Source of the DNA: Candidatus Parcubacteria bacterium
GTDB lineage: Bacteria; Patescibacteriota; Patescibacteriia; Patescibacteriales; UBA12465
Direction: 5' to 3'
DNA length: 64,000 bases
Assembly: GCA_023444045.1 (NCBI GenBank)
Contig: JAEZRQ010000002.1
Coordinates: 76,102 to 140,101, forward strand
Shown: positions 6,066-57,730 of the stretch, piece after piece
Numbering within the stretch: position 1 is the stretch's first letter
Layout of the letters: each line of letters starts with the position of its first letter
Translations under genes and position numbers: made by a program
The notes under the pieces: generated by a model
The model's database searches: none
What the model was told of the DNA's origin: nothing
What the model saw: only the letters and a program-made list of their open reading frames with translations

Positions 6066-6098
6066 CTAAAAAATAGCCTTTATCTAGCTATTTTTTAA
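6066..6098 (-). terminator. intrinsic terminator after xth
   Basis: AAUAGC/GCUAUU stem flanked by an A-run and a U-run (aaaaaatagcctttatctagctatttttt). Confidence 0.55.
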
Positions 6099-6104
6099 TT
6101 AATT

Positions 6105-10748: not shown

Positions 10749-10760
10749 AAAATAAAAACT

Positions 10761-11624
10761 ATGAATAATAAATTTCTATCATCAGGACATAATGCTTGCG
10801 CTGGTTGCGGTGAACTATCGGCGGCTCAAGCGGTGATGCGCGGACTCACTAAACAAACCATTATTGCTAATGCGACCGGTTGTTTAGAGGTGACTACTAC
10901 CGCTTACCCTCAAAGCGCTTGGGGATTACCCTGGATTCATTCTTTGTTTGAAAATGCTTCTTCGGTCGCTTCTGGAATACTTGCTGCTTTAAAACAAAAA
11001 AATGATAAAGAAACAAAAGTAGTTGTTTTTGGTGGTGATGGCGGAACCTATGATATCGGTTTTGGACAAATTTCCGGCATGTGGGAAAGAGGAGAAAATA
11101 TTTTATACATTTGCTTTGATACCGAAGCTTATTCTAATACTGGCATCCAAGCTTCTGGGTCCACCCCATATGGTGCCGCAACTACCACCACACCAAACGG
11201 ATTAAATTCTATTGGATCAAACACACAAAAAAAAGATATGATTGGCGTTGCCTTAGCTCATGGTCTAAAATATATCGCTCAAAGTACTGCTGGTTTCCCA
11301 GATGATATTACTAATAAAGTAAAAAGGGCATTAACAATAACTGGCCCTAGTTATATTCAAATATTATCCCCTTGTATTCCCGGTTGGAAAATAAATTACG
11401 ATGAAGCTGGTGAGATGGGTAAGTTAGCCGCCCAAACCGGACTGTACCCACTCCTTGAATATATTGACGGGAAATTAACTTCATCAAATATTAAAGAGGG
11501 GTTTAAAAATAAGCCTGTTGCTGACTATCTATTAAAACAGGGTCGTTTTAAACATTTAAAAGAAGAGGAAATAACGGTTATTCAAAAATTAGCTGATGAA
11601 AATATTTTAAAATGTAAAATATGA
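10761..11624 (+). CDS. porB: POR beta subunit (TPP-binding)
   Basis: GHNACAGCGE and the GGDGGTYDIG TPP motif. Confidence 0.85.
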   Translation: MNNKFLSSGHNACAGCGELSAAQAVMRGLTKQTIIANATGCLEVTTTAYPQSAWGLPWIHSLFENASSVASGILAALKQKNDKETKVVVFGGDGGTYDIGFGQISGMWERGENILYICFDTEAYSNTGIQASGSTPYGAATTTTPNGLNSIGSNTQKKDMIGVALAHGLKYIAQSTAGFPDDITNKVKRALTITGPSYIQILSPCIPGWKINYDEAGEMGKLAAQTGLYPLLEYIDGKLTSSNIKEGFKNKPVADYLLKQGRFKHLKEEEITVIQKLADENILKCKI

Positions 11625-12961
11625 AAAAAATATTAATCTCTTTTATTTTTGTTATATCAGTATTCTTTGTTTTTAGCGCTACTCAAGCTTCAGCTGCCTG
11701 CTATTGGGTAAAAAAAGAAACATATTATGATACAGTAAAAAGAGAAACCGTTATTAAGGGTGGTTGCGCTGCCATACAAACAGAAAAAAGTGATAGCAGC
11801 TGCTCTGGTACCAAACCTAAATATGACTCATCTGATGGGATTGCTCGGGTGGCTGTCTGTTGTTGCGATAAGAGTGAGGCAAACACTGCAACCGCAAAAG
11901 ATACTTGCTCTTGGCAGATATCGAAATCATATTATGATACTGCCTCTAGAGAAACTGTTAAAACTACTTGCAGTACCGGCACAGCTCTTTACGGTGATAA
12001 CAATTGTTCTACCCCAAAACCAGAAAACAAAACTTCTAATGGAATTGCGGAGACACCTATTTGCTGCTGTAAGGCTGGTGTTACCGCCAAAAGCCAAACA
12101 AAAGCTGCTCCTAGATTTATAATGCCAGAGTTTCAAATAAAAATTCCTGGCCTTAATAAACTAAGTGATGTAAGTTGTGCTAATGGAGTCTGTAAGATAC
12201 CGTGGATATCAGAATATACTTTTGCCGTGTATGAATACGGCCTATCTATTGCGGGAATTTTAGGTGTTTTAATCCTGATGGCGGCCGGTCTTCTCTGGAT
12301 TGTTTCAGGCGGCGATCAAAACAAAATAACCAAAGCTAAAAAAATGATTTTTGGCAGCATAGTCGGTTTAATTATACTTGTCGGAGCAAATTTACTTCTA
12401 ACAAATATAAATCCCGACTTAGCTGAGTCAAAAACTATTAATATTGGTTATGTAGAAAGAATTGAATTAGAGAAAGATGTTGATATTATGGTGGTTGGTG
12501 GTGTAACTGGTTATTTAGCTGGTTGTAAAGCTGCTAAAAATGGGGATTTATCAGTTTGCGAAGCTTATGGAAACGCTGAGCCAGGAGGATTGATTGATGC
12601 CCCAGGGAAAAAAGGCACCATCAGGATTAAAGCGGATGTCTACCAAAAATATCAAGCGGTCATGGAATGCGTTCGTCAAAAAAATAATGGTCAAGATTTG
12701 TTTGTAATCAACGAAGCGTTTCGTTCGGCTGCTGAGCAAATCCGCTTAAAGGAACAAGGATACCCCGCCGCAACTCCATGCTGCTCAAATCACAGCTCTG
12801 GACAAGCAATGGATATCCACCGCAAAGATGGTAATAAAATGACTTGGGAATATAATATATCTTCTGGCTTAAAAGAATGCATGAATGCTCAAGGTCTATA
12901 TGCAAACCTTAACAAAGCCCCTTATGATGAACCTTGGCATTGGTCACCAACCGGAAAATAA
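11621..12961 (+). CDS. Cys-rich repeat + T4SS-pilin-like core + C-terminal M15 (VanY/LAS-type) peptidase fusion protein
   Basis: Signal peptide, then two internal Cys-rich repeats (CYWVKKETYYDTVKRETV…VCCC and CSWQISKSYYDTASRETV…ICCC). The helix pair is paralogous to the one in 9669..10748. The C-terminus has SNHSSGQAMDI and EPWHW, which look like metal ligands of D-Ala-D-Ala carboxypeptidase-type M15 enzymes. ATGA overlap with porB. Confidence 0.65.
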   Translation: MKKILISFIFVISVFFVFSATQASAACYWVKKETYYDTVKRETVIKGGCAAIQTEKSDSSCSGTKPKYDSSDGIARVAVCCCDKSEANTATAKDTCSWQISKSYYDTASRETVKTTCSTGTALYGDNNCSTPKPENKTSNGIAETPICCCKAGVTAKSQTKAAPRFIMPEFQIKIPGLNKLSDVSCANGVCKIPWISEYTFAVYEYGLSIAGILGVLILMAAGLLWIVSGGDQNKITKAKKMIFGSIVGLIILVGANLLLTNINPDLAESKTINIGYVERIELEKDVDIMVVGGVTGYLAGCKAAKNGDLSVCEAYGNAEPGGLIDAPGKKGTIRIKADVYQKYQAVMECVRQKNNGQDLFVINEAFRSAAEQIRLKEQGYPAATPCCSNHSSGQAMDIHRKDGNKMTWEYNISSGLKECMNAQGLYANLNKAPYDEPWHWSPTGK

Positions 12962-32529: not shown

Positions 32530-32553
32530 GCGGACAGTTGAACGACTGTCCGC
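32530..32553 (-). repeat. fourth copy of the GUUCAA-loop hairpin (no ribozyme attached), followed by UUCCUUUCC
   Basis: Minus strand reads GCGGACAG-UCGUUCAA-CUGUCCGC then UUCCUUUCC. The loop and trailing motif match the three cassette hairpins, but the stem sequence is completely different. Confidence 0.6.
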
Positions 32554-32575
32554 GATTTTAGAGTATTTTTAAGAG

Positions 32576-32956
32576 CTACTCTTTACTCTTTTTTTCTCTT
32601 TCTATGCGCCTTCGTTCGCAGAAGCGGCAGTTACCCTTGTGAACCATAGCCACGCCCCTGTCAACTTTAGTTACGATATATTCGCAGCCATCTAAATAGA
32701 TAACCTTGTATGATTCTGGGTTAAATCCATACCTATCAATATAATAAGGATATGTGATAGAATCACTTACTGCGACCATAGAATCACTTACTGCGACCAT
32801 AGAATCACTTACTACTTCTATAGTATTTATCTCCGCAGAATCATTCTTGTCTGACAAATATACCACCTTATACGACGGCACATCCGAACATCCCACACAA
32901 AAAAATGCTAAAATAAAAATTATATTTTTCATTTTTTTAATTTTTAAATTCTCCAA
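32576..32956 (-). CDS. small lipoprotein with VSDSMVA tandem repeat (probable true start ATG at 32932)
   Basis: MKNIIFILAFFCVGC is a lipobox-like signal. The track start at 32956 is a TTG. The basic C-terminus contains CRFC. Confidence 0.6.
   Translation of the reverse strand: MENLKIKKMKNIIFILAFFCVGCSDVPSYKVVYLSDKNDSAEINTIEVVSDSMVAVSDSMVAVSDSITYPYYIDRYGFNPESYKVIYLDGCEYIVTKVDRGVAMVHKGNCRFCERRRIEREKKSKE
32757..32815. repeat. 21-bp tandem repeat x ~2.8 inside the lipoprotein gene
   Basis: atagaatcacttactgcgacc occurs twice, followed by the partial copy atagaatcacttactac. It encodes the in-frame VSDSMVA repeats. Confidence 0.9.
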
Positions 32957-33063
32957 AGCACTATTGCCTGGATTATTCTGAAACTAATTAATTTAATAAG
33001 ATTCAAAATAATCCAAACAATAATTTGAGAATAAAAAATGAAAAGATTTTTTTTAAAGAACAT

Positions 33064-33116
33064 TTCCTTTTCGTCGTTTCCGACTCATCAGCCAAGATAC
33101 ACATCTTGGGAAGGAA
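33064..33116 (-). ncRNA. type III hammerhead self-cleaving ribozyme (copy A)
   Basis: Minus strand reads UUCCU-UC^CCAAGAU-GUGU-AUCUUGG-CUGAUGA-GUCG-GAAA-CGAC-GAAA-AGGAA. The full catalytic core is present (CUGAUGA, GAA, A15.1-U16.1, C17). Stems I and II are closed and stem III is open. Confidence 0.9.
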
Positions 33117-33222
33117 GAGCAGATTTGAACTATCTGCTCTCTATTAAACTATTTTATCCATCCGATTTCGCTCTTAGGATTTAAGGCGCTCAATTTAATG
33201 TCAAGAGGGGACAAAATAATAT
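33117..33222 (-). repeat. intergenic cassette A: conserved ~80-nt module + GUUCAA-loop hairpin
   Basis: The module starts immediately after the stop codon (TAG|ATATTATTTTGTCCCCTCTTGACATTAAATTGAGCGCCTTAAATCCTAAGAGCGAAATCGGATGGATAAAATA). The hairpin GAGCAGAU-AGUUCAA-AUCUGCUC follows. The module is near-identical to cassette B. Confidence 0.8.
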
Positions 33223-33366
33223 CTATTTTTTTCTTACTACCAAGGCAACAAAAATAATTGACACCACGGCTAATGGAATAACACTAAAATTGTTATTATA
33301 GCCCATGAGATAGTTTAAGCCCCACATGCAAGCAAGACCTAAGATAATAATTATTATTTTTTTCAT
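33223..33366 (-). CDS. 47-aa hydrophobic peptide (below ORF-track cutoff)
   Basis: MKKIIIIILGLACMWGLNYLMGYNNNFSVIPLAVVSIIFVALVVRKK*. The conserved cassette begins directly after its stop codon, exactly as it does after the 529-aa gene. Confidence 0.5.
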   Translation of the reverse strand: MKKIIIIILGLACMWGLNYLMGYNNNFSVIPLAVVSIIFVALVVRKK

Positions 33367-33412
33367 TTTATTTGCCTACTCTATTACAGGTTTTCGGCTT
33401 CCCCTGATTTTT

Positions 33413-36400
33413 TTATACTAGTCCGGCTCTGCGCAGAGCGTCGGCTAAGAGGCCATCGCTTGAAGTTTCGCTAGACTCACCATCCACCTCATCTTTACCT
33501 TCTTCATATTGGTAATTTCCAAAATGATAATCATATACATAATATTTGACATCATTTGGGTCGGCCCCTACGAAGAAATCTAAGCCACCAAGCTCCGTCA
33601 GGTGGTCGTACACTCGCGCCCGTCCGCAGTGCCCGACAATATGTTCGTCGAGTTTTTCGGCGGGAAGATTTTCTACATTCTTGACAAATTCAAGTGTGCG
33701 ATTTAAATCTCCACCGAAAGCGTTTAAAAGATAGCGAGGTAACTTGTTTCTTTTTTCAAGCTCCTCTCTTTCTTTTTGACGCACTTTGAACAATTGACTC
33801 AGCTCCGCAATCATTTCTTCTATCTCACGACAGATATTATTAACGTCCGTAAAATCACCTTTTTGCAAAGCTGATTTTACTTCCGAAAGCTGATTGCGAA
33901 TTTCGCGGATTTTCTCGGAAATAAGTTCAGGCTCAACCTCAGTTAAAGTTTTTTCAAAACTTTCTTCGGCATTAATAATTAAAGCATTAGCTTTCTCATA
34001 TTCAACACGAAGATTGTTTTTTATTTCCTCAGCTTTAGTTTCCATCCCTCCTACTCGCTCGGAAGAATTTTCAAGAGTTAACCCCTCTATCATTTCCATT
34101 CTAAGCATTTCAAGGTGATTTTTCAGCGCATTTCCCAGCTCGGTCAGCCCCCAACAATTACGAAAGATTTCTTCATTGGGGATCGTCAAAGCTTCAGAAA
34201 CTTGATTGTTAAAATTACTAACCAAATTTCTTTTCGCTCTTTCAATTTGCTCCTGACGAGCTTTTTCTATTCTTGCTCGGTGTTCACCCAAGGTTTGAGT
34301 ATAACCATCGCAAGAAAGTTTTAGCTCGCGACCACTGGGGAGCGAAACACTCTCCGGTTTGGTTTCAAAAATAAAATTTTCTGAGACCTCAATCTTGGCA
34401 ATAAAATCACCATAATAATGAGTATATACAACAGAAAATTCTTTATCTTCAATCTCTATAACTAAAGGATTTTTTTCCTCAATAGAAGCTATCTCCTCTG
34501 GTGAAATTAATTGAGATAAATTTATTCTTAAATCATCTTGACTTATCTCTTTCTCAAGGAGATTTTCAAGTTGAGTAAAACCAAGTACCTTCCAAGGCTC
34601 CAATACTTTGCAGTATTGTTCGCCAATAACTTCGCTATTGTTTTTTGATTCAATAGCTCCGCCACTACGCGCCCAATATGCATCATATTGGTTCATAATT
34701 TCTGTGTTATCATGATAGAGATTTCTTACAACTTCCGAAGAAGCGTATCTACTCATCATATTGTTCACAAAAATTTTGAAAGCCTCAGCGCTCCACGGAG
34801 CAGTCTTTGCCACCCGAGCAATTTCCATATCGTTAAAAACCGTAATATGGTCTTCAACAACACAATTTTGCTCATCATCCCAATGAAGGTTTTCAACCTT
34901 CTCTGAGACCAGATGTGGCGCCACTTCAGCTAACCAGGCTGGGTCCACTTTTGATGCCATACTTACCAAATTAAGAGTCATAGACCCTCTTCTGGTAGCA
35001 ATCTGCAGATCAAAAGGGATTCCTACGATCCAATCAGGAGTAGATCTCTCTACCACTGAACTAGACCCCAACTCACGGTCAGTGTCATCTCCGTTGCGAT
35101 ATGACCCATACTGGTTTTTATATAGATGGTCTACCATACCGGCACAAACAGCTTTCAGGATGTTTTCCCTTTTACCATTTGTACCAAAACGGAAATGTCC
35201 TTTCAAGGCCTCAGATAAAAGATGTCGAATTTCTTTGGCGCGATAAAAATCACGCAAAGCAATCCCTTTTTCTTTCATCTCGACTTCACTCATTGTGCGA
35301 GATATTTCCCACACTTTGAGCTGAGCCATGATGTCAGACTCTCTTTCATCCGGCACCATACCACGCCAATCTGGGCGGTCGGGTCGATTGCGACTCGGCG
35401 GAGGAACAGTAATGCCGTCCATCTCCATAATCGCAGCAACAGTCAAGACGTCACTTACGACGCCAAGACGATCAGCTTCAATTAACATCCGACCATATTT
35501 CACCGAAACCGGAAGCTTGTTTACCAAGCGACCAATTCCAGTTACCTTGCCTTCGCTAGTCATACAGCCCAAACCAATTAAGGTCTTGCGAGCATCACTG
35601 ATGTCTGATTTAGCGGGCTGATGGAAAAATTCCATCATCTCCATATCAAACCCAGCGATTGCCAGACGCAAAACTGTTTGGTCCAAGCGTTTACGCAGAA
35701 TCTCGGCCACCGGGAAGTCGGGCCTGTTTGAACTCGAGCAGTGATCAATATAGATTCCTGCTTTTGTTCTTCCTGCGCGCCCCTTTCTTTGCTTCGAATC
35801 GGCCAGTGAAATTGGTTTCAGGTATAAACCCTCAACTCCATCAACTAGCTCAATCCGACGTTCAAGTCCGGAATCCACGACGGCATCAATGTCATCAATT
35901 GTCACACTGGTTTGCGCAACATTTGTCGACACTACAACCTTCGGCTTACCATAGTGCGCAAAGCACTTGGCTTGCTCATCTGGTGTGAGTTGTCCGTGAA
36001 GTGGCAGGACTACCGCCGAAACATTCAACTGCGCCAGGCGGTTAATAGTCTCATTGATTTCCTGCTGTCCGGGTTGGAAAACCAGAACATTGTGACCTTC
36101 AGCAACTAAAGTTGCAACATCGGACTCAATGTTATAACCGGCCGTTTTTTCCTCAACCGTGAATGTTCGCCCTGGGACAGAAATGATTGGTGCATTATTA
36201 AAAAATGCACTCAACTTTTCCGACTCCAAAGTCGCACTCATGAGAACTACTTTCATAGTTGAGCCAGTGGCAATTTGAGATTTCACCCAGGCCACCAGAA
36301 CTTCCATGTTTTCGTTCCACTCATGCACCTCATCGAGGACGAGAATGCCTCGATTCTGACCCATAAGCTCACGCACAAGTGCGAGGCCATCGGTGCAAAA

Positions 36401-36688
36401 TAGACAACGGGTTGCGGAACTATCCGCTCGTTCTACCGCGGTGCGGTAGCCGATGGTAACCCCAATTTTTTCGCCCATCTCATAAGCCACGCGAGCAGCA
36501 ACAGAACGGGCGGCGAGTCGGCGGGGTTGAGTCACGACTAAGTCATAACCTGCCTCCAGCAAGTACTGCGGTACTTGCGTGGATTTCCCCGCTCCAGTTT
36601 CGGCCGTAATGACCGTTACTGGATTTTCTTTGATGCTCTTCAGAATCTCATTCCGAAACGCATCAATGGGTAATATTGTTTTTTTCAT
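33413..36688 (-). CDS. DEAH-box (HrpA/HrpB-like, SF2) ATP-dependent RNA helicase with long coiled-coil C-terminal extension
   Basis: Motifs I ETGAGKST, Ia TQPRRLAARSVA, II DEVH, III SAT, V TNVAQTSVTI and VI QRKGRAGR. About 450 aa of K/E-rich C-terminal region follow. Confidence 0.85.
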   Translation of the reverse strand: MKKTILPIDAFRNEILKSIKENPVTVITAETGAGKSTQVPQYLLEAGYDLVVTQPRRLAARSVAARVAYEMGEKIGVTIGYRTAVERADSSATRCLFCTDGLALVRELMGQNRGILVLDEVHEWNENMEVLVAWVKSQIATGSTMKVVLMSATLESEKLSAFFNNAPIISVPGRTFTVEEKTAGYNIESDVATLVAEGHNVLVFQPGQQEINETINRLAQLNVSAVVLPLHGQLTPDEQAKCFAHYGKPKVVVSTNVAQTSVTIDDIDAVVDSGLERRIELVDGVEGLYLKPISLADSKQRKGRAGRTKAGIYIDHCSSSNRPDFPVAEILRKRLDQTVLRLAIAGFDMEMMEFFHQPAKSDISDARKTLIGLGCMTSEGKVTGIGRLVNKLPVSVKYGRMLIEADRLGVVSDVLTVAAIMEMDGITVPPPSRNRPDRPDWRGMVPDERESDIMAQLKVWEISRTMSEVEMKEKGIALRDFYRAKEIRHLLSEALKGHFRFGTNGKRENILKAVCAGMVDHLYKNQYGSYRNGDDTDRELGSSSVVERSTPDWIVGIPFDLQIATRRGSMTLNLVSMASKVDPAWLAEVAPHLVSEKVENLHWDDEQNCVVEDHITVFNDMEIARVAKTAPWSAEAFKIFVNNMMSRYASSEVVRNLYHDNTEIMNQYDAYWARSGGAIESKNNSEVIGEQYCKVLEPWKVLGFTQLENLLEKEISQDDLRINLSQLISPEEIASIEEKNPLVIEIEDKEFSVVYTHYYGDFIAKIEVSENFIFETKPESVSLPSGRELKLSCDGYTQTLGEHRARIEKARQEQIERAKRNLVSNFNNQVSEALTIPNEEIFRNCWGLTELGNALKNHLEMLRMEMIEGLTLENSSERVGGMETKAEEIKNNLRVEYEKANALIINAEESFEKTLTEVEPELISEKIREIRNQLSEVKSALQKGDFTDVNNICREIEEMIAELSQLFKVRQKEREELEKRNKLPRYLLNAFGGDLNRTLEFVKNVENLPAEKLDEHIVGHCGRARVYDHLTELGGLDFFVGADPNDVKYYVYDYHFGNYQYEEGKDEVDGESSETSSDGLLADALRRAGLV

Positions 36689-36794
36689 TTTTTTATTTTT
36701 TTGGTTTTATCAACTACTCAGTAATTTGAGTAACTAATAGAGCCAAAAAAATAGGTAAAATGATAAACCTACTAACTATTTATTTTTTAACGTT

Positions 36795-36847
36795 CTCCTT
36801 TTCGTCGTTTCCGACTCATCAGCTAGGATGCACATCCTAGGAAGGAA
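36795..36847 (-). ncRNA. type III hammerhead self-cleaving ribozyme (copy B)
   Basis: UUCCU-UC^CUAGGAU-GUGC-AUCCUAG-CUGAUGA-GUCG-GAAA-CGAC-GAAA-AGGAG. Stem I has two compensatory base-pair changes relative to copy A. Confidence 0.9.
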
Positions 36848-36951
36848 GAGCAAGTTTGAACGACTTGCTCTTTTTTGAACTTATTTTATCCATCCGATTT
36901 CGCTCTTAGGATTTAAAGCGCTCAATTTAATGTCGAGAGGGGACAAAATAT
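36848..36951 (-). repeat. intergenic cassette B: conserved ~80-nt module + GUUCAA-loop hairpin
   Basis: TAA|ATATTTTGTCCCCTCTCGACATTAAATTGAGCGCTTTAAATCCTAAGAGCGAAATCGGATGGATAAAATA, then the hairpin GAGCAAGU-CGUUCAA-ACUUGCUC (compensatory relative to A). Confidence 0.8.
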
Positions 36952-38541
36952 TTACGCCTGGAGTTTATCGTAGGCTCCAGCAAACCCGCGGCCAGCGTCA
37001 CCGTAAGCCTGATATAGGCCATTGGCAGCTGCCCAGCCGTTGGGATACGTCGGGCGACCGTCAACCATCGCAACTTCACCGAGAAATTCGGCAACAACCG
37101 GTTTAGGTCCAGACAGGTTTACCTTATCTGGGAAACGTTTGTCGCCTTTGGCAAGATATGCGGTTCCAGTCATCACCCCCGCCTCAACGAGAAAAGGAAT
37201 AGGACCTAAATCGCGAACATCAGCCACCTGAATGTCGCCCAATGTTACGGTTCTGTCCGGATTTTTCAGCAGCTTCACAGCCGCTTCAATCTCTGTCATT
37301 GCTTCAGCCTCCGATGAAACGTTTTCGCGTTTCATGATTTCCGGAAGACGCATAGCGAGCACTTCAGCTGCAGTAACACCAGGACACTGTCCGGCGTAAG
37401 CAGCGGCCAAGCAATGGTCGGCGGCGGCGATTACCCTGTCTTCTTGCGTTGGTTCAATTCTCAAAAATTTCAGGAGTTGACCCAAACTGGAAGCTTCCAG
37501 GTATTGAGCTGGTGGCAAACCGAATCCAGCGTTACCAGGATTATGATGGTCGCACTGAGCGACAATCGTAAGTCCAGCCGCGGCAGACGGAGCACATTCA
37601 AATATGATGCACTCCAGGCAATCCGTAGATTCACCTGCTTCGCTATCTATCTGATATCCGTCCGCCCGGTAAGCCGTCATGGGGTTACATTTTTCACCAC
37701 CCATGGTTGCGGTAGCTAAAAGTAAACCGTGCTGAATCGCAATTTTTCTGGCCCGTTGCTCCTCGATGTCGGGAGCACCAAAAATGATTACTCGCGGACA
37801 AAATGTTTCGTGGATGAAATTTTCCAAAGCGGTTTGGTCTGCGTATCCACCCCAGAAGGCATTAGTTTTAGTCGTAAGTCCTCCAGTCCAACCGCCAGGA
37901 AATTTGGCATCAATAGCCTTCACCACAGCAGGTGTGCCATAATAATTACTTTCACCATCTCCTGATAAAATCAAAAGATTTTGGCGAGTGCCCTGGGTTT
38001 CAAAAACTCTGTCAGCAATCGGCGCCGTTTTAGAATGTGCACAACGCACAACAACTAATCCGTTCGTGAATTTTTCCTGAGCCGCGACTGCCCGCTCGGC
38101 TTCAATCTCCTGCTCTGAAGTAATCCCCTGGCAAGAGCGGTCGAAAGCGCGCACTTGACGTATTTCTTCGATGGAAGCACCAGAGGCAACAAGCCCCGGG
38201 ATATACCCTTCGTCGTTAATGGCAATAAGAATATCTTCGCGGGTCGGTTTTACACCGATTAATTCAAGCACCTGCAGAATACTCTGCGGATTTCCGCTAA
38301 AATCACCATGATGATCAATTATCAAAGCATTAGTTGGCAGCTCAATATCAACCACCAATTCAATGAGAACAGGGATTTTACCAGCAGTTGTAACAGCTTT
38401 AATTGCGTCACTATAAGCTGAAGCTTTCGCACCCCAACCTAAATTGCCATTTATAACCTCGGCGCTAACCTCGGTTAAAATTTTTTCAATTTGCATCATT
38501 TCAGCATCTTTGCCTCCTAAAAAAAATACGAACTTTTTCAT
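36952..38541 (-). CDS. hypothetical two-domain protein with duplicated DHH-type motif (possible phosphoesterase)
   Basis: 529 aa and very GC-rich. IIDHHGD is at aa 74-80 and CDHHNPG at aa 330-336, each preceded by a similar beta-strand-like start (FVFFLGGKDAEM and VIIFGAPDIEEQ). Family not recognised. Confidence 0.6.
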   Translation of the reverse strand: MKKFVFFLGGKDAEMMQIEKILTEVSAEVINGNLGWGAKASAYSDAIKAVTTAGKIPVLIELVVDIELPTNALIIDHHGDFSGNPQSILQVLELIGVKPTREDILIAINDEGYIPGLVASGASIEEIRQVRAFDRSCQGITSEQEIEAERAVAAQEKFTNGLVVVRCAHSKTAPIADRVFETQGTRQNLLILSGDGESNYYGTPAVVKAIDAKFPGGWTGGLTTKTNAFWGGYADQTALENFIHETFCPRVIIFGAPDIEEQRARKIAIQHGLLLATATMGGEKCNPMTAYRADGYQIDSEAGESTDCLECIIFECAPSAAAGLTIVAQCDHHNPGNAGFGLPPAQYLEASSLGQLLKFLRIEPTQEDRVIAAADHCLAAAYAGQCPGVTAAEVLAMRLPEIMKRENVSSEAEAMTEIEAAVKLLKNPDRTVTLGDIQVADVRDLGPIPFLVEAGVMTGTAYLAKGDKRFPDKVNLSGPKPVVAEFLGEVAMVDGRPTYPNGWAAANGLYQAYGDAGRGFAGAYDKLQA

Positions 38542-38659
38542 TTTTTTATTTTTTTACCTCCTAACACATGTTCGGATTATTCTAAAACCCAAAATAATAA
38601 TTGAGATTTAAAATAATCCAAACAAATGCTTGATAAAAAAATATTTTATTTAAATGAAC

Positions 38660-38712
38660 TTCCTTTTCGTCGTTTCCGACTCATCAGCCAAGACACACAT
38701 CTTGGGAAGGAA
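38660..38712 (-). ncRNA. type III hammerhead self-cleaving ribozyme (copy C)
   Basis: UUCCU-UC^CCAAGAU-GUGU-GUCUUGG-CUGAUGA-GUCG-GAAA-CGAC-GAAA-AGGAA. The core is intact, with one U-G wobble in stem I. Confidence 0.9.
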
Positions 38713-38735
38713 GAGCAGATTTGAACTATCTGCTC
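38713..38735 (-). repeat. GUUCAA-loop hairpin (copy C)
   Basis: GAGCAGAU-AGUUCAA-AUCUGCUC sits directly 5' of hammerhead C. Here the upstream ~200 nt differ from the A/B module. Confidence 0.75.
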
Positions 38736-38939
38736 ATTTGTATTCTGTGTCGCCAGAATTTGCGTTGCCTAACTTTTTCCTGGTCAGGAGATATGAACAT
38801 ATCTCTTTTCGACAATCAAACCAGACTAAATTTTTACGTGTTAATTAGTTTTTCACGTCCAAGAAATTTATTCTAGATGAAGGCTTTACCTTCTTGGATT
38901 CCCCTGTTATGCCAACAAGACAGGGGTTAGCTAACCGAT

Positions 38940-39185
38940 TTATGACCAAACTTCTTTGATAATTTCAATCGGAATGCCAAGAATATCTAAATCTGATGGG
39001 GTTAACCCTTCAGATTTTAATTTCTTAGCTGTAGCTAAGGCCTTAGATCTCTCCGATTTTATTCGGAAATCTTCGACCTCTCTGCTGCAAGCATCACAGT
39101 AGCCGTCAGTGCCGCCCATATAATGGCCAGTCGCATTAGCTCCACAGCGCTTACAGGAACCAAAATATCCCGCCATAGCTTTCAA
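38940..39185 (-). CDS. small Zn-ribbon protein (CxxC…CxxC) with helical C-terminus
   Basis: CKRC…17 aa…CDAC. The track start is a TTG, and an in-frame ATG at 39176 gives 78 aa. Confidence 0.55.
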   Translation of the reverse strand: MKAMAGYFGSCKRCGANATGHYMGGTDGYCDACSREVEDFRIKSERSKALATAKKLKSEGLTPSDLDILGIPIEIIKEVWS

Positions 39186-39940
39186 AAATCTTACTATAAA
39201 AATTTCTAGAAGCTATAGCTGATTTTTTAAAATTTAAGGAACAACTCTTCCGAAGAAGTTTCTAAGTCCCAAACTTGTTCAAGGTTTAGAGGCTTAGCCG
39301 ATCTCTTCGTAAGAAAACGGTTGAAGAAACGATTGTTCTTGGAACTTACTCGTCGCTTACATTACGCAAGCTAATTGGGCCACCAAATACTTAATCAAAG
39401 TCTTTCGTGAGTTCCGGTTTGCAACGGACCTAACTACTTAACTAATTTCTTCTACCCACTTTTGTGGAGCAAACTAACAGAGCTGTAAATCTTAGGACAT
39501 GGACTCTCTCCGTCCACCTCAATCTCCTAAAATTTTCAATCACCTGTTTGGTGCTGCTTATTCCCTAAGCAACTTGGGAAGATTATGTACTAATCTTTTT
39601 TATGAATAGAATAGGCAATCATGAAGGGGAAAATTGCTTTATTAACTGAGTTAAACTAGGCATGGGGCGTCTAGTCATCTTAATCTCAATGTTTTTTGGC
39701 AGTTTATATATTGAGCTTCAACTTAAGTCTTGTGGCTAAAGCAGAGCTAAACCATCTTTATTCCTCTTCATAACTGCCTATTCTAAAAAAAGATAATAAA
39801 TGGAAACGGGTTAAACCTCATATAAGGAGATAAGCCGCTTTCACCTATTATCTTTATAGTTGAATGCTTTGACTTAATATCTGGCTCTCTCCTTCCATTT
39901 ATTAATTGTTTCTTTTGTTTGAATGTACTACCATCTTAAC
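39186..39940 (-). ncRNA. ~750-nt ORF-free, hairpin-rich leader / candidate large non-coding RNA of the island operon
   Basis: No ORF of 60 aa or more occurs in any frame. It lies downstream of a near-consensus minus-strand promoter. Many strong local helices are visible, for example an 11-bp AAAUUUUAGGA/UCCUAAGAUUU stem, an 11-bp AAUAAAUGGAA/UUCCAUUUAUU stem, and UUCG- and GNRA-like loops. The strand is inferred from the promoter and operon context. Confidence 0.4.
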
Positions 39941-39947
39941 TGTCTAA

Positions 39948-39976
39948 AGTATAGCATTATTTTATACTATTGTCAA
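39948..39976 (-). promoter_or_regulatory. near-consensus sigma70-type promoter driving the island operon
   Basis: Minus strand reads TTGACA (39976..39971), a 17-nt spacer, then TATACT (39953..39948). The -35 is embedded in the palindrome TATTGtCAATA. Confidence 0.55.
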
Positions 39977-40072
39977 TACTAAATAAGACATTTTTAGACT
40001 AATGTAAGTAAAGATGCTGACAATATTCATCTATATCCGCTTATTTATTATTAAATATTGTCATTTTATAAG

Positions 40073-40101
40073 TTGACATTTTTATTTTAAGGCGCTATAA
40101 T
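40073..40101 (+). promoter_or_regulatory. consensus sigma70-type promoter for the TrmB-like regulator gene
   Basis: TTGACA, a 17-nt spacer, then TATAAT (both perfect), about 50 nt upstream of the ATG at 40155. Confidence 0.65.
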
Positions 40102-40154
40102 ATAGACATAAATATTAAAATTTGTAAAGTTATCCACAGTCTAAAAATAAAAAT

Positions 40155-40904
40155 ATGTACGAAAAAATCATTAATAATTTAGGGCTTTCAAAGGTCCAGG
40201 CAGAAATATTTAACTGTCTACTAATAAACGGCAGTGATAAAGCTAGTAATATCGCTAGAAAAATAAAAAGGCCACGTGGTGTGGCTTATAAGGGTTTAGA
40301 AGAATTAGTATTTATGAAACTAGCAATCAAAGACGAGGATAAAAAAGGAATTGCTGTTTTTTCCGCTGAACACCCCAGCCATTTAGAAGATATTTTGGAT
40401 AAAAAAGAAAAAGAGTTTAAACACAGTCGTCAAGAATTTTTAAATAATTTACCGGACCTAATTTCTTCTTATAATTTAAGCAATAACAAACCGGGAGTTA
40501 AGTTTTATGAGGGTGAGGAAGGAATAGAGAAATCATTAAACGATACTTTACTAGCTAAAGACATTATTTATACTTTCGCTGATATTGAGGCGGTTGAGAA
40601 TAATATCAAACCAATTCAAGATGCTTATGCTAAAAAAAGAGAAAAGCAAAAAATAAAAAAAAGAGTTATCGTTGCCGACACCTCTTTTAATAGAAATTTT
40701 TTAAAAGGATTCAATAATGAATGGACTGAATTTAAATTCTTGCCACCAGAATTCTATAATTTTAGCAGCGGAGTTCAGATTTACGATAATAAGGTGTCTT
40801 ACCAGGTAATTGCCCCAGATAAAAAAATGGCAATAATTATTGAAGACTCCCACGTTTATCAGATGAATAGATTAATCTTTGAGTATCTTTGGAAAACCCT
40901 TTAA
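40155..40904 (+). CDS. TrmB-like winged-helix transcriptional regulator
   Basis: The N-terminus LGLSKVQAEIFNCLLINGSDKASNIARKIKRPRGVAYKGLEELVFMKL fits the TrmB-type wHTH pattern. Confidence 0.6.
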   Translation: MYEKIINNLGLSKVQAEIFNCLLINGSDKASNIARKIKRPRGVAYKGLEELVFMKLAIKDEDKKGIAVFSAEHPSHLEDILDKKEKEFKHSRQEFLNNLPDLISSYNLSNNKPGVKFYEGEEGIEKSLNDTLLAKDIIYTFADIEAVENNIKPIQDAYAKKREKQKIKKRVIVADTSFNRNFLKGFNNEWTEFKFLPPEFYNFSSGVQIYDNKVSYQVIAPDKKMAIIIEDSHVYQMNRLIFEYLWKTL

Positions 40905-43900
40905 TTTTTTTCAAAAACCAAATAACGGACATCACCAGGAAGATTTTTATCTTTAAAATACCTAGTTAGTAAGTATTTGTCTTCTTCTTTTTTTACTAAT
41001 TGATCATCTGACTCAGCTAAGAATAAAGATAAGGCTTTCTCATATTCAGACATTTCTGAAACTAAATCAAACTTCAAAACAACTACTGGTTCCCCCAAGG
41101 ATTCTTTAATTTCTTTTTTATTAATAATTAATTTTTTTAAACTATCTTCACTTAAATTTTTTGTATTCAACCTTTGATTTAAATTTTTATCTAATTTAAT
41201 AGAAAACATTTTTTCTCCGCTGCCATGATAACTATCAATAATAGCATCAGCAATAAAACCAACTTTTTCAACATAAGAACAGCCGGCTGGAATTTTAATT
41301 GATACTGCCGCCTCCAAAACATTTTTATTCCCTTCTGCCATCAGAGCTTTTTCCATTAAAACGTTGCCAATTGACAAACCTCTTAAATCTTTTGAAACAT
41401 TAAAAGACCCAGCATAAATATTATCATGATCAGTTTTCTCAAAACGGACAAAACCAATAACATCATCTTGATGTTTTAAAATATAAGCTTTTTGTTCTTT
41501 AACATCAACTAGAGACTTCTCTAAACCGTCAAGAACCGTCTCGGCCATTTTTTTATTATCAAAATCTGACCAGTTGTCCCTAGCAATACCAAGAACTTGC
41601 TGTTTATCATCTTCCGACATATCCTGGCCATAATCTTTAATATCTAAACTAATATTTTTGATAAGTTCAAGATCTAAGGTATCGCCACTGTTCTTAAGAG
41701 ATTCTAGGACCGAAACAAGAAAGAGGGTTTCAATTTTATTGTTTTCTAGTTTATCTAAGATAATTTTTAAATCATCTGAATTATTGTTTTCTAAGTCGCC
41801 CGAAAAACTAACAATAATATTATGCATTTTTTCTAAAAGTTTTTCTCTAAGTACCTTAAAATTTAGTTCCTTTTTTTCTTTGAAAAATAGGTTTTGCAAT
41901 TCCTCATTTTTTTTATCAATCAAATCAACAATTTGAGCAACTTTTCCAAAGAATAAGCTGCTGTTATCTCTCATTTTCTGGTCTATTGAGATTATTTTTT
42001 CAGCATCACTCTCTTCTACTCTTAAAGACAGGAATGATTTTACCTTATTTAATTTATCGTCCCCATCTTTTGCATTATTTATAAATTCAGCAGTTTGTTT
42101 AATTTTTTCTTCATTACTCTCGCTTAAAAATTTGAGTAAATATATCTGATATCGAAAGGGAATCTCTTTTAAGTTAATACCAACAACGTCTTTGATGTAT
42201 GATTCCATATCCGGACGATGCATGTGTTTTAAAAGCAAAATCGTCTCGTCACTATTATCTTCGGGGATAAAATTGACAATCTGATCGTCTTTAGTTAAAT
42301 CATTATAAGCACTAAAGTTAACTTTCAAAACATCACCATCTAAGGCCGCCTTTATTTCGGTTATTTTTTTAGCAATGCCGTTTAACAAAGACTCAGGGTC
42401 AGAGCAAATTGAAGATAACACCTGATAATGAGACTGAATTAATTCATAATTATCTTTTTCAGCTTTAGAGTATAAATCATTAATTTGTTTTTCCGCTGAA
42501 TTAAAATTTTCGTGATGGAGTGACCTTAATTTATTATATTCAATAAATAAACCATGGTCGTTTTTCCCTAGATTATTTAAGACAACGACAAAATCAACAG
42601 CAGTTGAATAAGCTAACTCTATTTTTTCTTTATCATAAGACTCAATAAAATCTTGAATCATTTCTTGAAAGCCACTATTTAATGAGTTAAAGACCCCTTT
42701 GCTAATTTCTTTTTTAAAAAAATCTAAAAAATTCTCCGATGCCTTAAGATTTTTTTCTTCCGCCTCATTCATAATACTAGAACGCTTAAGAAGTAAGTCA
42801 TCTTTAATCATCTCCAATTCTTTTTGTTTATTAAAAAAGTCAGAAAAATCATCTTCTGAAAGATTATCACTAATCTCTGACCAAGATTTAGCTAGTTTTT
42901 TTTCATCGCTACCACAATAAGGAATTAAAATTTTATGATTCAAGTAAACAATTAGATTTTCAAAATTTATTTTATTTGGCTGACTTAAAACGCTCTCTAA
43001 CTTTGTTATATCCTTAACAGAAATTTCACTTCCCATTTCTGTCTTTTTCTTCTGGTTAAACTCATCTTCTGAAAATAAACCATATTTTATTGGCATATTA
43101 CTATGATCAACTATAGCAACCGTATCAGAAGCCACCCGCACAATTTTATTATTAGGATCAACTAAGACATCTGGTAAAATTAATTTTTCTATATATTGAG
43201 AATCTTTTTTTTCTTCTTCTGATAAAGACTCATTTAATCTTAGATTACCAACATTTTCGGAAAACTTAACTATTCCTAAAGTAGGATTATCTTCTTCACT
43301 ATCAACTCTTTTTTCAACCAAATCAATTGCCCACCGTAAGAGAGCTGAGTCTGTTTTCTCTCTCATATCGGCTAATAGTTGATGAAGATTGTCCAAACCT
43401 TTTTGAGACGAACCAGTGCCAGCGGAATTGGCCGCTAACAATTTTATCAAATGAAGTTCATCAAATTGCTCTGCATAAGAGCTCCTATTAAATGCTTCTA
43501 ATAATTTAGCAAAGTCTTTTTCTCTATATTCCCAAGACAGACTGTAAACCAAGTCATCAGCCATACAGCCGCCAATTTGACCATAATTTTCTACCGCCCT
43601 AGTAGCTCTAGCTGTCAAGGCAAATTTGTCCGCTATATCCAAATTGGAACTTAAACTGGGACTGCTGCTGAAAAAATTATTTCTAACTGCTTTTAAAAAA
43701 TAATCAAAATTCGGATGCTGGCTATTGTGCTCACAAAAGTTTAATAAAGAAGTGACAATTATTTTATTAGCTGCTCTAAGCTTGCCAGAATATTCCTCCC
43801 TGGGATCAAAATCTTTGTCCCTAGCTTTAAAAAAAGAATTAATTTGCTCCTCGAAATAAACAATAGCCTCAAAACTATCATTAATTTCTACATTTTTATT

Positions 43901-44062
43901 TAAATATTTAGTAAAAAAATCCGTGGCCAAATCTTCTAAGGCATTTTTTTCCTGCTGGCTTAAAATACTCTGGTCTGCTAACAAAATCTCCTTTTCTTTA
44001 CCAGGATTATCTTTTTCGTTGCTAATTAGATTAAAATTATTTGGGTTGTTTTCTTTAAACAT
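40901..44062 (-). CDS. large orphan protein with C-terminal GNAT acetyltransferase-like domain
   Basis: 1053 aa and K/E/N/D-rich. The C-terminal ~150 aa carry a GNAT motif-A-like LRGLSIGNVLMEKAL, preceded by VIGFVRFE. Confidence 0.6.
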   Translation of the reverse strand: MFKENNPNNFNLISNEKDNPGKEKEILLADQSILSQQEKNALEDLATDFFTKYLNKNVEINDSFEAIVYFEEQINSFFKARDKDFDPREEYSGKLRAANKIIVTSLLNFCEHNSQHPNFDYFLKAVRNNFFSSSPSLSSNLDIADKFALTARATRAVENYGQIGGCMADDLVYSLSWEYREKDFAKLLEAFNRSSYAEQFDELHLIKLLAANSAGTGSSQKGLDNLHQLLADMREKTDSALLRWAIDLVEKRVDSEEDNPTLGIVKFSENVGNLRLNESLSEEEKKDSQYIEKLILPDVLVDPNNKIVRVASDTVAIVDHSNMPIKYGLFSEDEFNQKKKTEMGSEISVKDITKLESVLSQPNKINFENLIVYLNHKILIPYCGSDEKKLAKSWSEISDNLSEDDFSDFFNKQKELEMIKDDLLLKRSSIMNEAEEKNLKASENFLDFFKKEISKGVFNSLNSGFQEMIQDFIESYDKEKIELAYSTAVDFVVVLNNLGKNDHGLFIEYNKLRSLHHENFNSAEKQINDLYSKAEKDNYELIQSHYQVLSSICSDPESLLNGIAKKITEIKAALDGDVLKVNFSAYNDLTKDDQIVNFIPEDNSDETILLLKHMHRPDMESYIKDVVGINLKEIPFRYQIYLLKFLSESNEEKIKQTAEFINNAKDGDDKLNKVKSFLSLRVEESDAEKIISIDQKMRDNSSLFFGKVAQIVDLIDKKNEELQNLFFKEKKELNFKVLREKLLEKMHNIIVSFSGDLENNNSDDLKIILDKLENNKIETLFLVSVLESLKNSGDTLDLELIKNISLDIKDYGQDMSEDDKQQVLGIARDNWSDFDNKKMAETVLDGLEKSLVDVKEQKAYILKHQDDVIGFVRFEKTDHDNIYAGSFNVSKDLRGLSIGNVLMEKALMAEGNKNVLEAAVSIKIPAGCSYVEKVGFIADAIIDSYHGSGEKMFSIKLDKNLNQRLNTKNLSEDSLKKLIINKKEIKESLGEPVVVLKFDLVSEMSEYEKALSLFLAESDDQLVKKEEDKYLLTRYFKDKNLPGDVRYLVFEKN

Positions 44063-57213: not shown

Positions 57214-57287
57214 GGGCAATTAGCTCAGTTGGTTAGAGCGCAACACTGATAATGTTGAGGTCGGAGGTTCGAATCCTCCATTGCCCA
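57214..57287 (+). tRNA. tRNA-Ile (GAU)
   Basis: Acceptor GGGCAAU/AUUGCCC, anticodon loop CUGAUAA, T-loop UUCGAAU. Confidence 0.92.
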
Positions 57288-57313
57288 CCGAATCATTTTT
57301 AAATGATTAGTAT

Positions 57314-57386
57314 CGCGGGGTAGAGCAGTTGGCAGCTCGTCGGGCCCATAACCCGAAGGTCGTCGGTTCGAATCCGACCCCCGCAA
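57314..57386 (+). tRNA. initiator tRNA-fMet (CAU)
   Basis: C1xA72 mismatch (CGCGGGG…CCCCGCA) and three G:C pairs closing the anticodon stem. The anticodon loop is CCCAUAA, so position 33 is C. Confidence 0.88.
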
Positions 57387-57407: not shown

Positions 57408-57730
57408 GCCTCGGTAGCTCAGTGGTAGAGCAAAGGACTGAATTTCGGTCCGTCCTGTAGAAACACAGGAATGAAAATCGGGTGAATTCGGAGAAACCTT
57501 AATTATTAAAATTTTTAATAAAAGGCAATTCCGAGCCAAGCCTTAACTGGGATAAAATGTTAAGGAAGGTGTAGAGACTAGCGGGTGAGCCCAACAATAA
57601 CCCCGCCGCGAGCGCCCGACTCCGTCTTTGTAGAAATATAAACGGAGATGATATAGTCCGATCCTTAAGGAAACTTAAGAAAATACTAAGGAAAATCCTT
57701 GTGTCGTCAGTTCGATTCTGACCCGGGGCA
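57408..57730 (+). tRNA. tRNA-Phe (GAA) interrupted by a group I intron in the anticodon loop
   Basis: Exon 1 is 57408..57439 and exon 2 is 57691..57730. Joined, they give a 72-nt cloverleaf with acceptor GCCUCGG/CCGGGGC, anticodon loop CU|GAAAA and T-loop UUCGAUU. Confidence 0.85.
57440..57690 (+). ncRNA. group I self-splicing intron (251 nt)
   Basis: P1 forms between the exon end GGACU and the internal guide GGUCC, with a U.G wobble at the splice site. The intron ends in G. There are P7-like strands AGACUA…AUAUAGUC and a terminal CUUAAG-GAAA-CUUAAG hairpin. The core resembles bacterial tRNA group I introns. Confidence 0.8.

Follow-up and report, generated by a model that had tools for sequence, protein, structure and literature searches.

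A conserved, structured leader RNA predicted to head a hammerhead-punctuated cassette array in Patescibacteria

The locus and its leader RNA

The DNA considered here, called the window throughout, is a stretch of 64,000 nucleotides (nt) from a Candidatus Parcubacteria bacterium (contig JAEZRQ010000002.1 of assembly GCA_023444045.1). On its minus strand lies a large structured leader RNA of ∼700 nt (39244..39941), the 5′ boundary of which is predicted from a promoter and the 3′ boundary of which is the end of a conserved terminal domain. Upstream of the leader and divergent from it is the gene for a TrmB/TrmBL2-like regulator of 249 amino acids (aa; 40155..40904, plus strand), and downstream are co-oriented genes separated by modules that contain type III hammerhead motifs. 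A reading of this DNA from its letters alone (the sequence-only reading) had proposed a large structured noncoding RNA (ncRNA) or leader at 39186-39940, between a promoter and the first open reading frame (ORF) of a gene island, and that proposal is supported by homologues and by covariation. Its span is slightly adjusted: the conserved element covers ∼39929-39244 in the alignment of homologues and ∼39941-39244 when the predicted start site is included, and thus reaches slightly beyond the 5′ end first drawn and stops short of the 3′ one. Beyond that proposal, the island downstream is a hammerhead-punctuated cassette array and the RNA family is tied to the TrmB-like regulator.

The region has little room for protein. 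As had been claimed, no ORF of 60 aa or more occurs across 39186-40154, the longest in any frame being 33-36 aa (39442-39543 minus, 39464-39568 plus and 39499-39609 plus); on the minus strand of 39244-39941 no ORF exceeds 36 aa, and the longest stop-free run within the RNA is 50 codons. No conserved reading frame was found among 23 homologues, in which the longest open stretches differ by strand, frame and position, and a few homologues carry isolated reverse-strand ORFs of 120-140 codons. A small conserved peptide beginning at AUGGAAGGAGAG was considered and dropped, its frame being kept for only 6 codons. The high self-complementarity noted earlier exceeds chance: the minus-strand RNA (39942-39186) has a minimum free energy of −208.2 kcal/mol, a value that none of 20 dinucleotide shuffles reaches (−161.6 ± 7.3 kcal/mol; z = −6.39), and the plus strand of the leader region gives a folding z of −5.75. 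The G+C content of 39001-40000 is 0.367.

Transcription of the leader is inferred from a promoter on the minus strand, TTGACA-17-TATACT with a TG extension (39948..39976; score 11/12), from which a start near 39941 is predicted. This promoter, recognized by the sequence-only reading as near-consensus, is real as a motif and has an equivalent (TTGACA-17-TAAACT/TATACT) in 18 of 20 homologous loci checked, where it either abuts the aligned 5′ end or stands 225-275 nt farther upstream. Since about half of the relatives have the more distant position, the RNA in those loci would be ∼950 nt and include an extra 5′ module; the size of the leader therefore runs from ∼700 nt in the window up to ∼950 nt in relatives. 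The promoter often overlaps a TTGACA-N4-TGTCAA palindrome, and in many loci TGACA/TGTCA palindromes overlap the −35 element. The TrmBL2-like protein encoded by the divergent gene is inferred to repress it. This regulator has the N-terminal winged helix and the architecture of TrmB/TrmBL2 proteins, with a long helix and a PLD-like C-terminal domain: residues 8-63 match Pfam PF01978 (TrmB) above the cut-off, and the AlphaFold model (predicted local distance difference test score 92) finds its best structural match in archaeal TrmBL2 (5bpd, E 1e-12), with a C-terminal domain similar to PLD-fold proteins. A search of the regulator sequence against the PDB gave no match.

Genes around the leader have homologues in metagenome-assembled genomes of Patescibacteria, which places the window in a genome of that group. 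For comparison, 80 genomic loci encoding relatives of the TrmB-like protein were fetched (individual loci are given L numbers). With the window RNA as a single query, nhmmer matched 12 of the 80 at E 6e-34 to 4e-19 (query positions 17-702); all matches are on the strand opposite the TrmB gene, and TrmB homologues flank every RNA copy. A further ∼12 copies come from a profile search together with a scan of metagenomes for the DNA pattern of the best-conserved 3′ motif. The scan returned 31 matches, among which ∼10 are further distinct copies and ∼11, unrecognized by profile or covariance model, were treated as chance. A covariance model of the last 198 positions recovers all known copies and gives weaker matches with a shorter core (E 1e-17 to ∼0.2, ∼18 of them at E <0.01) in ∼28 further TrmB loci; all of its matches outside the training loci lie 0.3-1.6 kilobases (kb) upstream of a TrmB gene on the opposite strand. 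Leader homologues are thereby placed in >25 Patescibacteria loci, upstream of an opposite-strand TrmB-like gene, and the nhmmer and metagenome searches, which the sequence-only reading had foreseen, yield full-length homologues in >20 independent genomes or metagenome contigs. BLASTN of the leader region against phage and plasmid collections gave no match, a scan of 2.9 million viral contigs for the 3′-domain signature gave 0 matches, and the covariance model found no leader on 17 viral stretches with the GTTCAA-hammerhead pattern.

The core of the family is the conserved 3′ domain (39247..39542, minus), composed of helix 1, a pseudoknot, hairpins and a terminal domain. Helix 1 pairs 39512-39536 with 39487-39504, with GGAGAGAG at 39504-39511, and corresponds to the predicted helix AAAUUUUAGGA...UCCUAAGAUUU enclosing UGGAC-GGAGAGA-GUCCA. 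In the pseudoknot, the invariant GUUUGC at 39469-39474 is complementary to the invariant GCAAAC loop of hairpin 2 (39410-39431), and the pairing covaries: in L037 and L017 the loop reads ACGAAC and the upstream segment GUUCGU(A), which gives two compensatory positions. A further hairpin occupies 39355-39371, and the terminal domain (39247-39313) ends in an apical loop, CCUUGAACAAG (39274..39284), that is identical in 24 of 25 main-family sequences, the remaining one carrying UUGAAU. Among the five helices offered as examples by the sequence-only reading, four match helices kept with compensatory changes. Besides helix 1 these are the conserved hairpins UGCUUA-GGGAA-UAAGCA and GCUUGC-GUAAU-GUAAGC, and CUUC-UUCG-GAAG, the bases of which are indeed paired, in the closing helix CGAAGAG/CUUCUUCG of the terminal domain and not as a UUCG tetraloop hairpin. 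The fifth, AAUAAAUGGAA/UUCCAUUUAUU, is not the conserved pairing, as in homologues its first arm forms a local hairpin presenting a GGAGAGAG loop and its second arm is the 3′ side of a conserved ∼65-nt hairpin at 39789-39855.

The helices covary above both shuffled and slid-partner controls. From 13 full-length sequences RNAalifold predicts 86 pairs, 41 of them with compensatory changes. Within the 3′ domain (∼300 nt; 22 sequences, 377 columns), 53 pairs are 95.5% canonical vs 85.2% in shuffles, and 31 of the 53 are doubly changed, a count that none of 500 shuffles attains (17.7 ± 2.1); when partners are moved by 1-3 columns, only 8-11 pairs retain a compensatory change. A 41-sequence alignment made with the covariance model has compensatory changes at 33 of 36 pairs, this alignment being fitted to the model in a way that favours the structure. 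An all-against-all scan of column pairs for helices had its signal swamped by purine/pyrimidine tracts.

The 5′ domain (39543..39941, minus) is variable, modular and less alignable. It includes a hairpin presenting AAGGAGAGAG (39881-39903) and the ∼65-nt hairpin at 39789-39855, whose shape is retained in 9 genomes although the sequences differ. A long helix, formed by 39761-39778 and 39614-39633, keeps 17 pairs around a variable insert; two small hairpins lie at 39580-39596 and 39556-39570, the latter of which covaries. The long helix, the ∼65-nt hairpin and the small hairpins recur with different sequences among relatives, and purine loops containing GGAGAGAG number 2-5 per RNA. Some relatives also carry extra conserved modules 3′ of the core. 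In L015, L012, L094, L091, L092, L113 and L087 such a module, ...AGGCCUUAA-[variable hairpin]-UUGAGGCUUAAGUUAUGG..., lies 100-200 nt after the core and consists of a Shine-Dalgarno sequence and an AUG followed, in most loci, by a mini-ORF of just 3-7 codons; either a leader peptide or a translational switch is conceivable.

The region is thus almost certainly a real, conserved and structured RNA, and neither a want of conservation and covariation nor decay from a protein gene, the two outcomes that would have told against the sequence-only reading, applies. With a length above ∼500 nt, no coding content, covarying helices and invariant unpaired blocks, it falls within the operational class of large ornate ncRNAs. 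It also matches no Rfam family, in line with that reading, which had been unable to match it to RNase P, tmRNA, 6S, group I/II introns or other large RNAs. Rfam 15 at gathering thresholds, applied to the whole window, has no match in 38700-40300, and a permissive search (E <=10) gives only scattered sub-threshold matches to small RNAs and microRNAs in the leader region; the covariance models of GOLLD, ROOL, OLE, HEARO, raiA, RNase P, tmRNA and 6S have no match at or near the gathering score. Rfam searches of 13 homologous loci likewise return no family for the leader, and seven of these are empty at the RNA position at E <=1. A group I or II intron was set aside, since Intron_gpI, Intron_gpII and group-II-D1D4 have no match and the element begins at a promoter and not inside a gene; for group II there is in addition no intron-encoded protein and no reverse transcriptase among the neighbours. 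The missing reverse transcriptase also led to a retron or DRT ncRNA being dropped, and a CsrB-like sponge was dropped because there is too much conserved structure beyond GGA loops.

Predicted hammerhead junctions and cassette array

Three junction modules punctuate the minus strand downstream of the leader. Module 1 (38659..38735) is the hairpin GAGCAGAUAGUUCAAAUCUGCUC (38713-38735) followed by type III hammerhead 1 (38659-38713), module 2 (36795..36880) is a GUUCAA box (36875-36880), a hairpin whose loop carries GUUCAA (36856-36861) and hammerhead 2 (36795-36847), and module 3 (33064..33139) is a hairpin with a GUUCAA loop (33117-33139) and hammerhead 3 (33064-33116). The type III hallmarks, namely the CUGAUGA...GAAA core, three stems with stem III open and a U-H cleavage site, are present in sequence. 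Hammerhead 1, also found by the motif search, has intact stems and an intact CUGAUGAG...CGAAA core (Rfam Hammerhead_3, 42.2 bits, E 9e-7), and hammerhead 3 an intact core and stems (39.1 bits, E 7e-6); permissive Hammerhead_3 matches in the window and three loci range over 37-43.5 bits (E 1.7e-4 to 9e-7) and fall in gaps between cargo genes. A structure-aware motif search of the fetched loci finds 48 hammerheads with covarying stems; every one is on the strand of the leader and downstream of the leader, and 20 of 25 main-family loci contain them.

Hammerhead copies within a locus are near-identical, as are the three in the window, and form parts of longer repeats, which in the window are D1 (99 nt, 76-89% identical, including junction module 1) and D3 (69 nt, 97% identical). 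The D3 copies, direct repeats at 33150-33218 and 36882-36950, each lie at the 3′ side of a different cassette, immediately ahead of the junction hairpin, and contain a TTGACA-like hexamer; D3 may be an internal promoter, a structured element or a recombination scar. A CRISPR remnant was considered and dropped: there are no short repeats with spacers and no cas genes, and the repeats are gene-separated junction modules of 99 and 69 nt. Clustered hammerheads that flank variable genes in polycistronic prophage transcripts have been reported, with in vitro cleavage for three arrangements (Perreault et al. 2011, PMC3088659), and this part of the arrangement is therefore of a kind already known.

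Between 39240 and 32560 the minus strand has no terminator-like site. The first such hairpin of the strand is at 32530-32553 and carries GUUCAA in its loop and a U-rich tail. The leader probably heads a transcript that is cut by ribozymes, cleavage being predicted from the motifs, and the simplest reading is of one ∼7.4-kb transcript that would be read through and would cut itself into units. A cassette-start motif, GUUGUUCCUUAAAUUUUAAAA (39225..39245, minus; (A/G)GUUCUUUGAAAAUU.AAUAG in relatives), follows the leader and each hammerhead, both copies being identical within L097, and this sharing places the leader as a ‘unit 0’ of the array. Across loci the leader is always upstream of co-oriented ORFs, the first of which lies 40-200 nt from the RNA core; this ORF and the later genes differ between loci.

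In the window, the first small ORF (38940..39185, minus; 81 aa from TTG 39185, or ATG 39176) lies between the leader and hammerhead 1 and encodes a Cys-rich, zinc-ribbon-like protein with no family match. It is followed by a 529-aa protein (36952..38541, minus), the N-terminal half of which is an NrN-type DHH phosphoesterase (PADLOC C3a116, E 4e-69; DHH_CorA, E 6e-47; PDB NrN 9lq9, E 4.5e-26 over residues 2-204), and by a 1091-aa DEAH/RHA RNA helicase (33413..36688, minus) that is HrpA-like (Pfam DEAD, Helicase_C and HA2_C; PDB HrpA 6zwx, E 1.6e-72 over residues 6-619). The interval 35001-38000, with the NrN and HrpA-like genes, has a G+C content of 0.45-0.50 vs ∼0.35 for the rest of the window, which, together with its bracketing by near-identical junction modules, suggests a recently acquired NrN-helicase cassette block. 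A DUF805b RNA motif (Rfam RF02914, 49.7 bits, above the gathering score; 33373-33407, minus) and, after it, a 47-aa mini-ORF for a two-helix membrane protein (33223-33366, minus) come next; in L005 a DUF805b motif (1309-1341) occupies the place expected for the leader, a short gap immediately following a TrmB-like gene. The last cassette, which with the terminator spans 32530..32956, encodes a 126-aa lipoprotein-like ORF (32576-32956, minus) with three tandem 21-nt repeats (32757-32826) that encode VSDSMVA repeats; a guess that it is an Mvol_0529 homologue was rejected by comparison. Directly before the A-rich start region of this cassette is a long perfect hairpin of the type UUGUCCGGAUUAUU...AAUAAUCCGGACAA (32954-33027, minus). 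Hairpins of that type also precede Mvol_0529-family genes in L001, L008, L009, L019, L095, L102 and L112, and appear to be a cassette-specific 5′ untranslated region (UTR) element.

The cargo is drawn from a recurrent set. Among 75 co-oriented ORFs in 25 loci, PADLOC recognizes the Mvol_0529 family (11), C3a116/DHH_CorA, i.e. NrN (7), Unk_01/C3a69 (7), viperin-like radical SAM proteins (2), DEAD/DEAH helicases (2), AAA-Csx3 (1) and Csx16/STIV-B116-like proteins (1), and more distant leader loci add SAVED and MoxR. The Mvol_0529 family, C3a116/NrN, C3a69/Unk_01, AAA-Csx3 and Csx16 are families that Shah et al. 2018 (PMC6546367) defined as accessory to type III CRISPR. None of the loci examined contains cas10, another core cas gene or a CRISPR array.

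The surroundings of the regulator gene are also recurrent. A protein of ∼900-1050 aa with a C-terminal GNAT domain is encoded convergently with the TrmB-like gene in the window (40901-44062, minus) and in L001, L003, L005 and L134, the two genes overlapping by 4 nt in several genomes, and FtsK is found downstream of the array in the window and in L001; from these conserved flanks it follows that the array occupies a fixed chromosomal slot. L005 has three TrmB-like genes in 13 kb (290-1060, 4467-5222 and 10231-11016), each of them divergent from a noncoding gap and from a set of genes that differs from one to the next. The RNA core is present in one of these gaps at least (11418-11540), and a weak hammerhead match lies downstream (12733-12798); modules can be multiplied in tandem. 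Elsewhere in the window, a group I intron (57430-57680, plus; 96 bits, above the gathering score) adjoins a tRNA cluster at 57214-57386.

Leader-junction complementarity and competing explanations

The invariant apical loop of the leader is the complement of the GUUCAA motifs at the junctions. Immediately 5′ of each hammerhead is a hairpin that has a covarying stem and displays GUUCAA in the loop, and 30-41 nt upstream the motif occurs again as an unpaired box. GTTCAA is enriched ∼47-fold, at two fixed positions, in the 70 nt before hammerheads (29 in 1,890 nt vs 76 in 234,782 nt), and the terminal hairpin of the array (32530-32553) has the motif as well. When leader loops were scored against spacers, 26 of 27 main-family spacers contained a perfect complement of 6-8 nt. 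In L037 the loop is CUUGAACC and the spacer loop GGUUCAAGC, a 9-nt match that persists after changes on both sides.

Sequence and comparison give a conserved promoter, a covarying structure with invariant loops, co-oriented hammerhead motifs, the complementarity and no coding potential, and the explanation that we favour, at somewhat better than even confidence, joins them as a new large leader RNA under TrmBL2-like control, a hammerhead-punctuated cassette operon and docking of the apical loop onto the junctions. The leader would be transcribed from its own conserved sigma-70-type promoter, probably repressed by the divergent TrmBL2-like protein, and would form the 5′ ‘unit 0’ of one long transcript from ∼39941 to ∼32530. 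The remainder of this transcript would consist of variable gene cassettes separated by junction modules, in each of which a type III hammerhead is accompanied by a GUUCAA box and a GUUCAA-looped hairpin. By self-cleavage the hammerheads would cut the transcript into units, releasing the leader still joined to the first small ORF. The loop CCUUGAACAAG could then base-pair with the GUUCAA beside every hammerhead, and the leader would serve as an RNA hub: by docking either at the junctions or at the 3′ termini of cleaved cassette RNAs, it could control their processing, stability or expression. The RNA-centred cargo (the HrpA-like RNA helicase and the NrN phosphoesterase) counts in favour of this explanation. 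For docking on its own the chances may approach even but do not exceed it.

Several observations weigh against this explanation. The scores of the hammerhead motifs fall short of the Rfam gathering threshold of 48.5 bits, and several distant loci with the RNA core have no recognizable ribozyme. The first hammerhead lies 3′ of the first ORF, so that the leader would not be released alone. In distant members the loop is of the UAACC or UAAACC type and has 4-5 complementary bases, which is no better than mismatched pairs of loci, and the case of UUGAAU with AUUCAA (L013/L101) is weak because AUUCAA loops occur also where the leader carries UUGAAC. In addition, a GUUCAA(A) hairpin loop followed after 7-8 nt by a cleavage site has the geometry of a tRNA T-arm and acceptor strand. 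Since this T-arm-like geometry is genuine in phage, GUUCAA may be kept for structural or enzyme-recognition reasons, and its complementarity to the leader could then be fortuitous. ARAGORN detects no tRNA-like gene in the array.

On IMG/VR viral contigs a genuine tRNA T-arm, GGGGGUUCAAACCCCC, is followed after 7 nt by a type III hammerhead, at L121 4230-4292, L123 minus near 6091-6154 and 7521-7582, L125 9027-9089 and L128 2795-2857; no leader RNA is found there, and the arrangement suggests ribozyme-made tRNA 3′ ends.

It might be supposed that so large a leader acts purely in cis, as a very large riboswitch, attenuator or antitermination element that makes no junction contact and that, by sensing a signal (e.g. 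a nucleotide second messenger or an RNA end), sets transcription or translation of the array. The RNA does always occupy the 5′ UTR position of co-oriented genes and has no terminator of its own, its many invariant unpaired nucleotides are like those of ligand-binding RNAs, the cargo is rich in enzymes and sensors of cyclic oligonucleotides (NrN, Csx3, Csx16/B116-like, SAVED), and some relatives have the conserved Shine-Dalgarno-AUG mini-ORF module after the core. However, 700-950 nt is several times the size of any known riboswitch, the downstream genes belong to no constant class, the 3′ end has no conserved expression platform, whether a terminator/antiterminator or one that sequesters a Shine-Dalgarno sequence, and the complementarity to junction motifs would be left unexplained; we regard a purely cis-acting leader as unlikely. 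A somewhat poorer prospect is a free-standing ornate RNA of the OLE/ROOL/GOLLD type, be it a scaffold, a ribonucleoprotein component or a self-assembling particle, with cassettes that are merely co-transcribed. Size, helix number, pseudoknot and invariant loops resemble those classes, the repeated GGAGAGAG loops could bind protein or mediate RNA-RNA contacts, and the RNA is constant while the cargo varies; yet there is no independent 3′ end signal, the first hammerhead lies beyond the first ORF, conserved specific partner proteins other than the TrmB-like regulator are lacking, and the cassette-start motif shared with post-hammerhead positions ties the leader to the array.

The high variability of cassettes between close relatives could also point to a platform for recombination at the level of DNA or single-stranded DNA, similar to attI, in which TTGAAC and GTTCAA would be one protein-binding site in opposite orientations. 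The two are reverse complements, the junction modules are near-identical within a locus (D1 76-89%, D3 97%), and the G+C-rich NrN-helicase block looks recently acquired. We nonetheless hold this to be very improbable. No integrase or recombinase is found beside the element or among 117 cargo ORFs, a length of 700 nt with >50 covarying pairs far exceeds what a recombination site needs, and G-U pairs, the promoter, one-strand hammerheads and the better fold of the minus strand fit a transcribed RNA. As for a decayed protein gene, or a chance AT-rich spacer with fortuitous hairpins, the isolated reverse-strand ORFs of a few homologues are what can be cited for it; they are outweighed by the absence of any open stretch >50 codons in the window, by the disagreement in frame, strand and position among the stretches of the homologues, and by compensatory substitutions in helices, a folding z of −6.4 and conservation with the promoter across many genomes, and the idea deserves next to no credence.

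Returning to the explanation that we favour, a wider form of it may be entertained, if only speculatively, as a possibility that we rate clearly below even. The RNA-led, ribozyme-punctuated cassette array could represent an unrecognized genetic system of Patescibacteria and an analogue, at the RNA level, of integrons and CRISPR. The UUGAAC loop would dock on T-arm-like GUUCAA hairpins at the ends of hammerhead-released cassette RNAs, and this docking might coordinate the expression of interchangeable defence or anti-defence genes, the products of which would act upon cyclic-nucleotide signals and RNA ends.

Relation to known systems

Among the families catalogued in Rfam, the collection compared here, the leader has no detectable relative. 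We regard the leader and its system as new, hammerhead-flanked genes themselves being already known. In the literature no description was found of a large Patescibacteria RNA of this sort, of a TrmB-linked RNA or of hammerheads in the Candidate Phyla Radiation, and the combination of a dedicated regulator, a structured leader of 0.7-1 kb, variable cassettes bounded by hammerheads and leader-junction complementarity was not found described.

To our knowledge, it is seldom that a new class of large, highly structured RNA is discovered in bacteria, and OLE, GOLLD, ROOL and raiA each opened structural and functional work. We are likewise aware of almost no RNA biology in the Candidate Phyla Radiation. 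The leader comes with an informative context, comprising a dedicated regulator, a conserved promoter and hammerhead-separated cassettes, and its complementarity to the junctions is specific and can be tested by mutation. The array could help to explain why self-cleaving ribozymes cluster beside particular variable bacterial genes, and the occurrence of NrN, Csx3, Csx16, Mvol_0529 and Unk_01 in a CRISPR-free, RNA-processing setting may revise ideas of the roles of those proteins.

The nearest likeness in form is to OLE, ROOL and GOLLD (and also HEARO and raiA), which similarly are ncRNAs of several hundred nt with covarying helices, pseudoknot contacts, invariant unpaired blocks and a narrow phylogenetic range. 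The leader differs from these in that their covariance models do not match it, in that it is found neither near tRNAs nor in phages, and in that it lacks its own terminator, has a fixed TrmBL2-like partner and always stands at the head of a cassette array. A different resemblance, by analogy, is to T-box leaders, the RNase P specificity domain and kissing-loop regulators, given the T-loop-like GUUCAAA hairpins and their possible contact with the apical loop of the leader. The proposed contact would, however, be Watson-Crick loop-loop pairing and not the elbow stacking of T-arm and elbow binders, and no tRNA-like structure is predicted in the array.

In the arrangement of its genes, the array recalls an integron (intI, Pc, attI, attC), with a divergent protein gene, an outward promoter, variable cassettes without promoters and structured repeats that are similar within the array. 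Unlike an integron it has no integrase, its boundaries are ribozyme modules and not attC sites, a 700-nt RNA stands at the position of attI, and the analysis yielded no evidence of site-specific recombination. With the hammerhead clusters of PMC3088659 it shares same-strand hammerheads that bracket variable genes and that presumably cut the transcript into gene-length RNAs. Those clusters are in prophages of cultured bacteria, whereas the arrays considered here are chromosomal islands of Patescibacteria, and for the former that paper describes neither a conserved large leader, nor a TrmB-like regulator, nor a conserved leader-complementary hairpin or box. Finally, the cargo families are the same as those in the accessory neighbourhoods of type III CRISPR-Cas systems (PMC6546367); in the loci examined here, however, core cas genes and CRISPR arrays are lacking, and these genes are carried in ribozyme-separated cassettes behind a large RNA.

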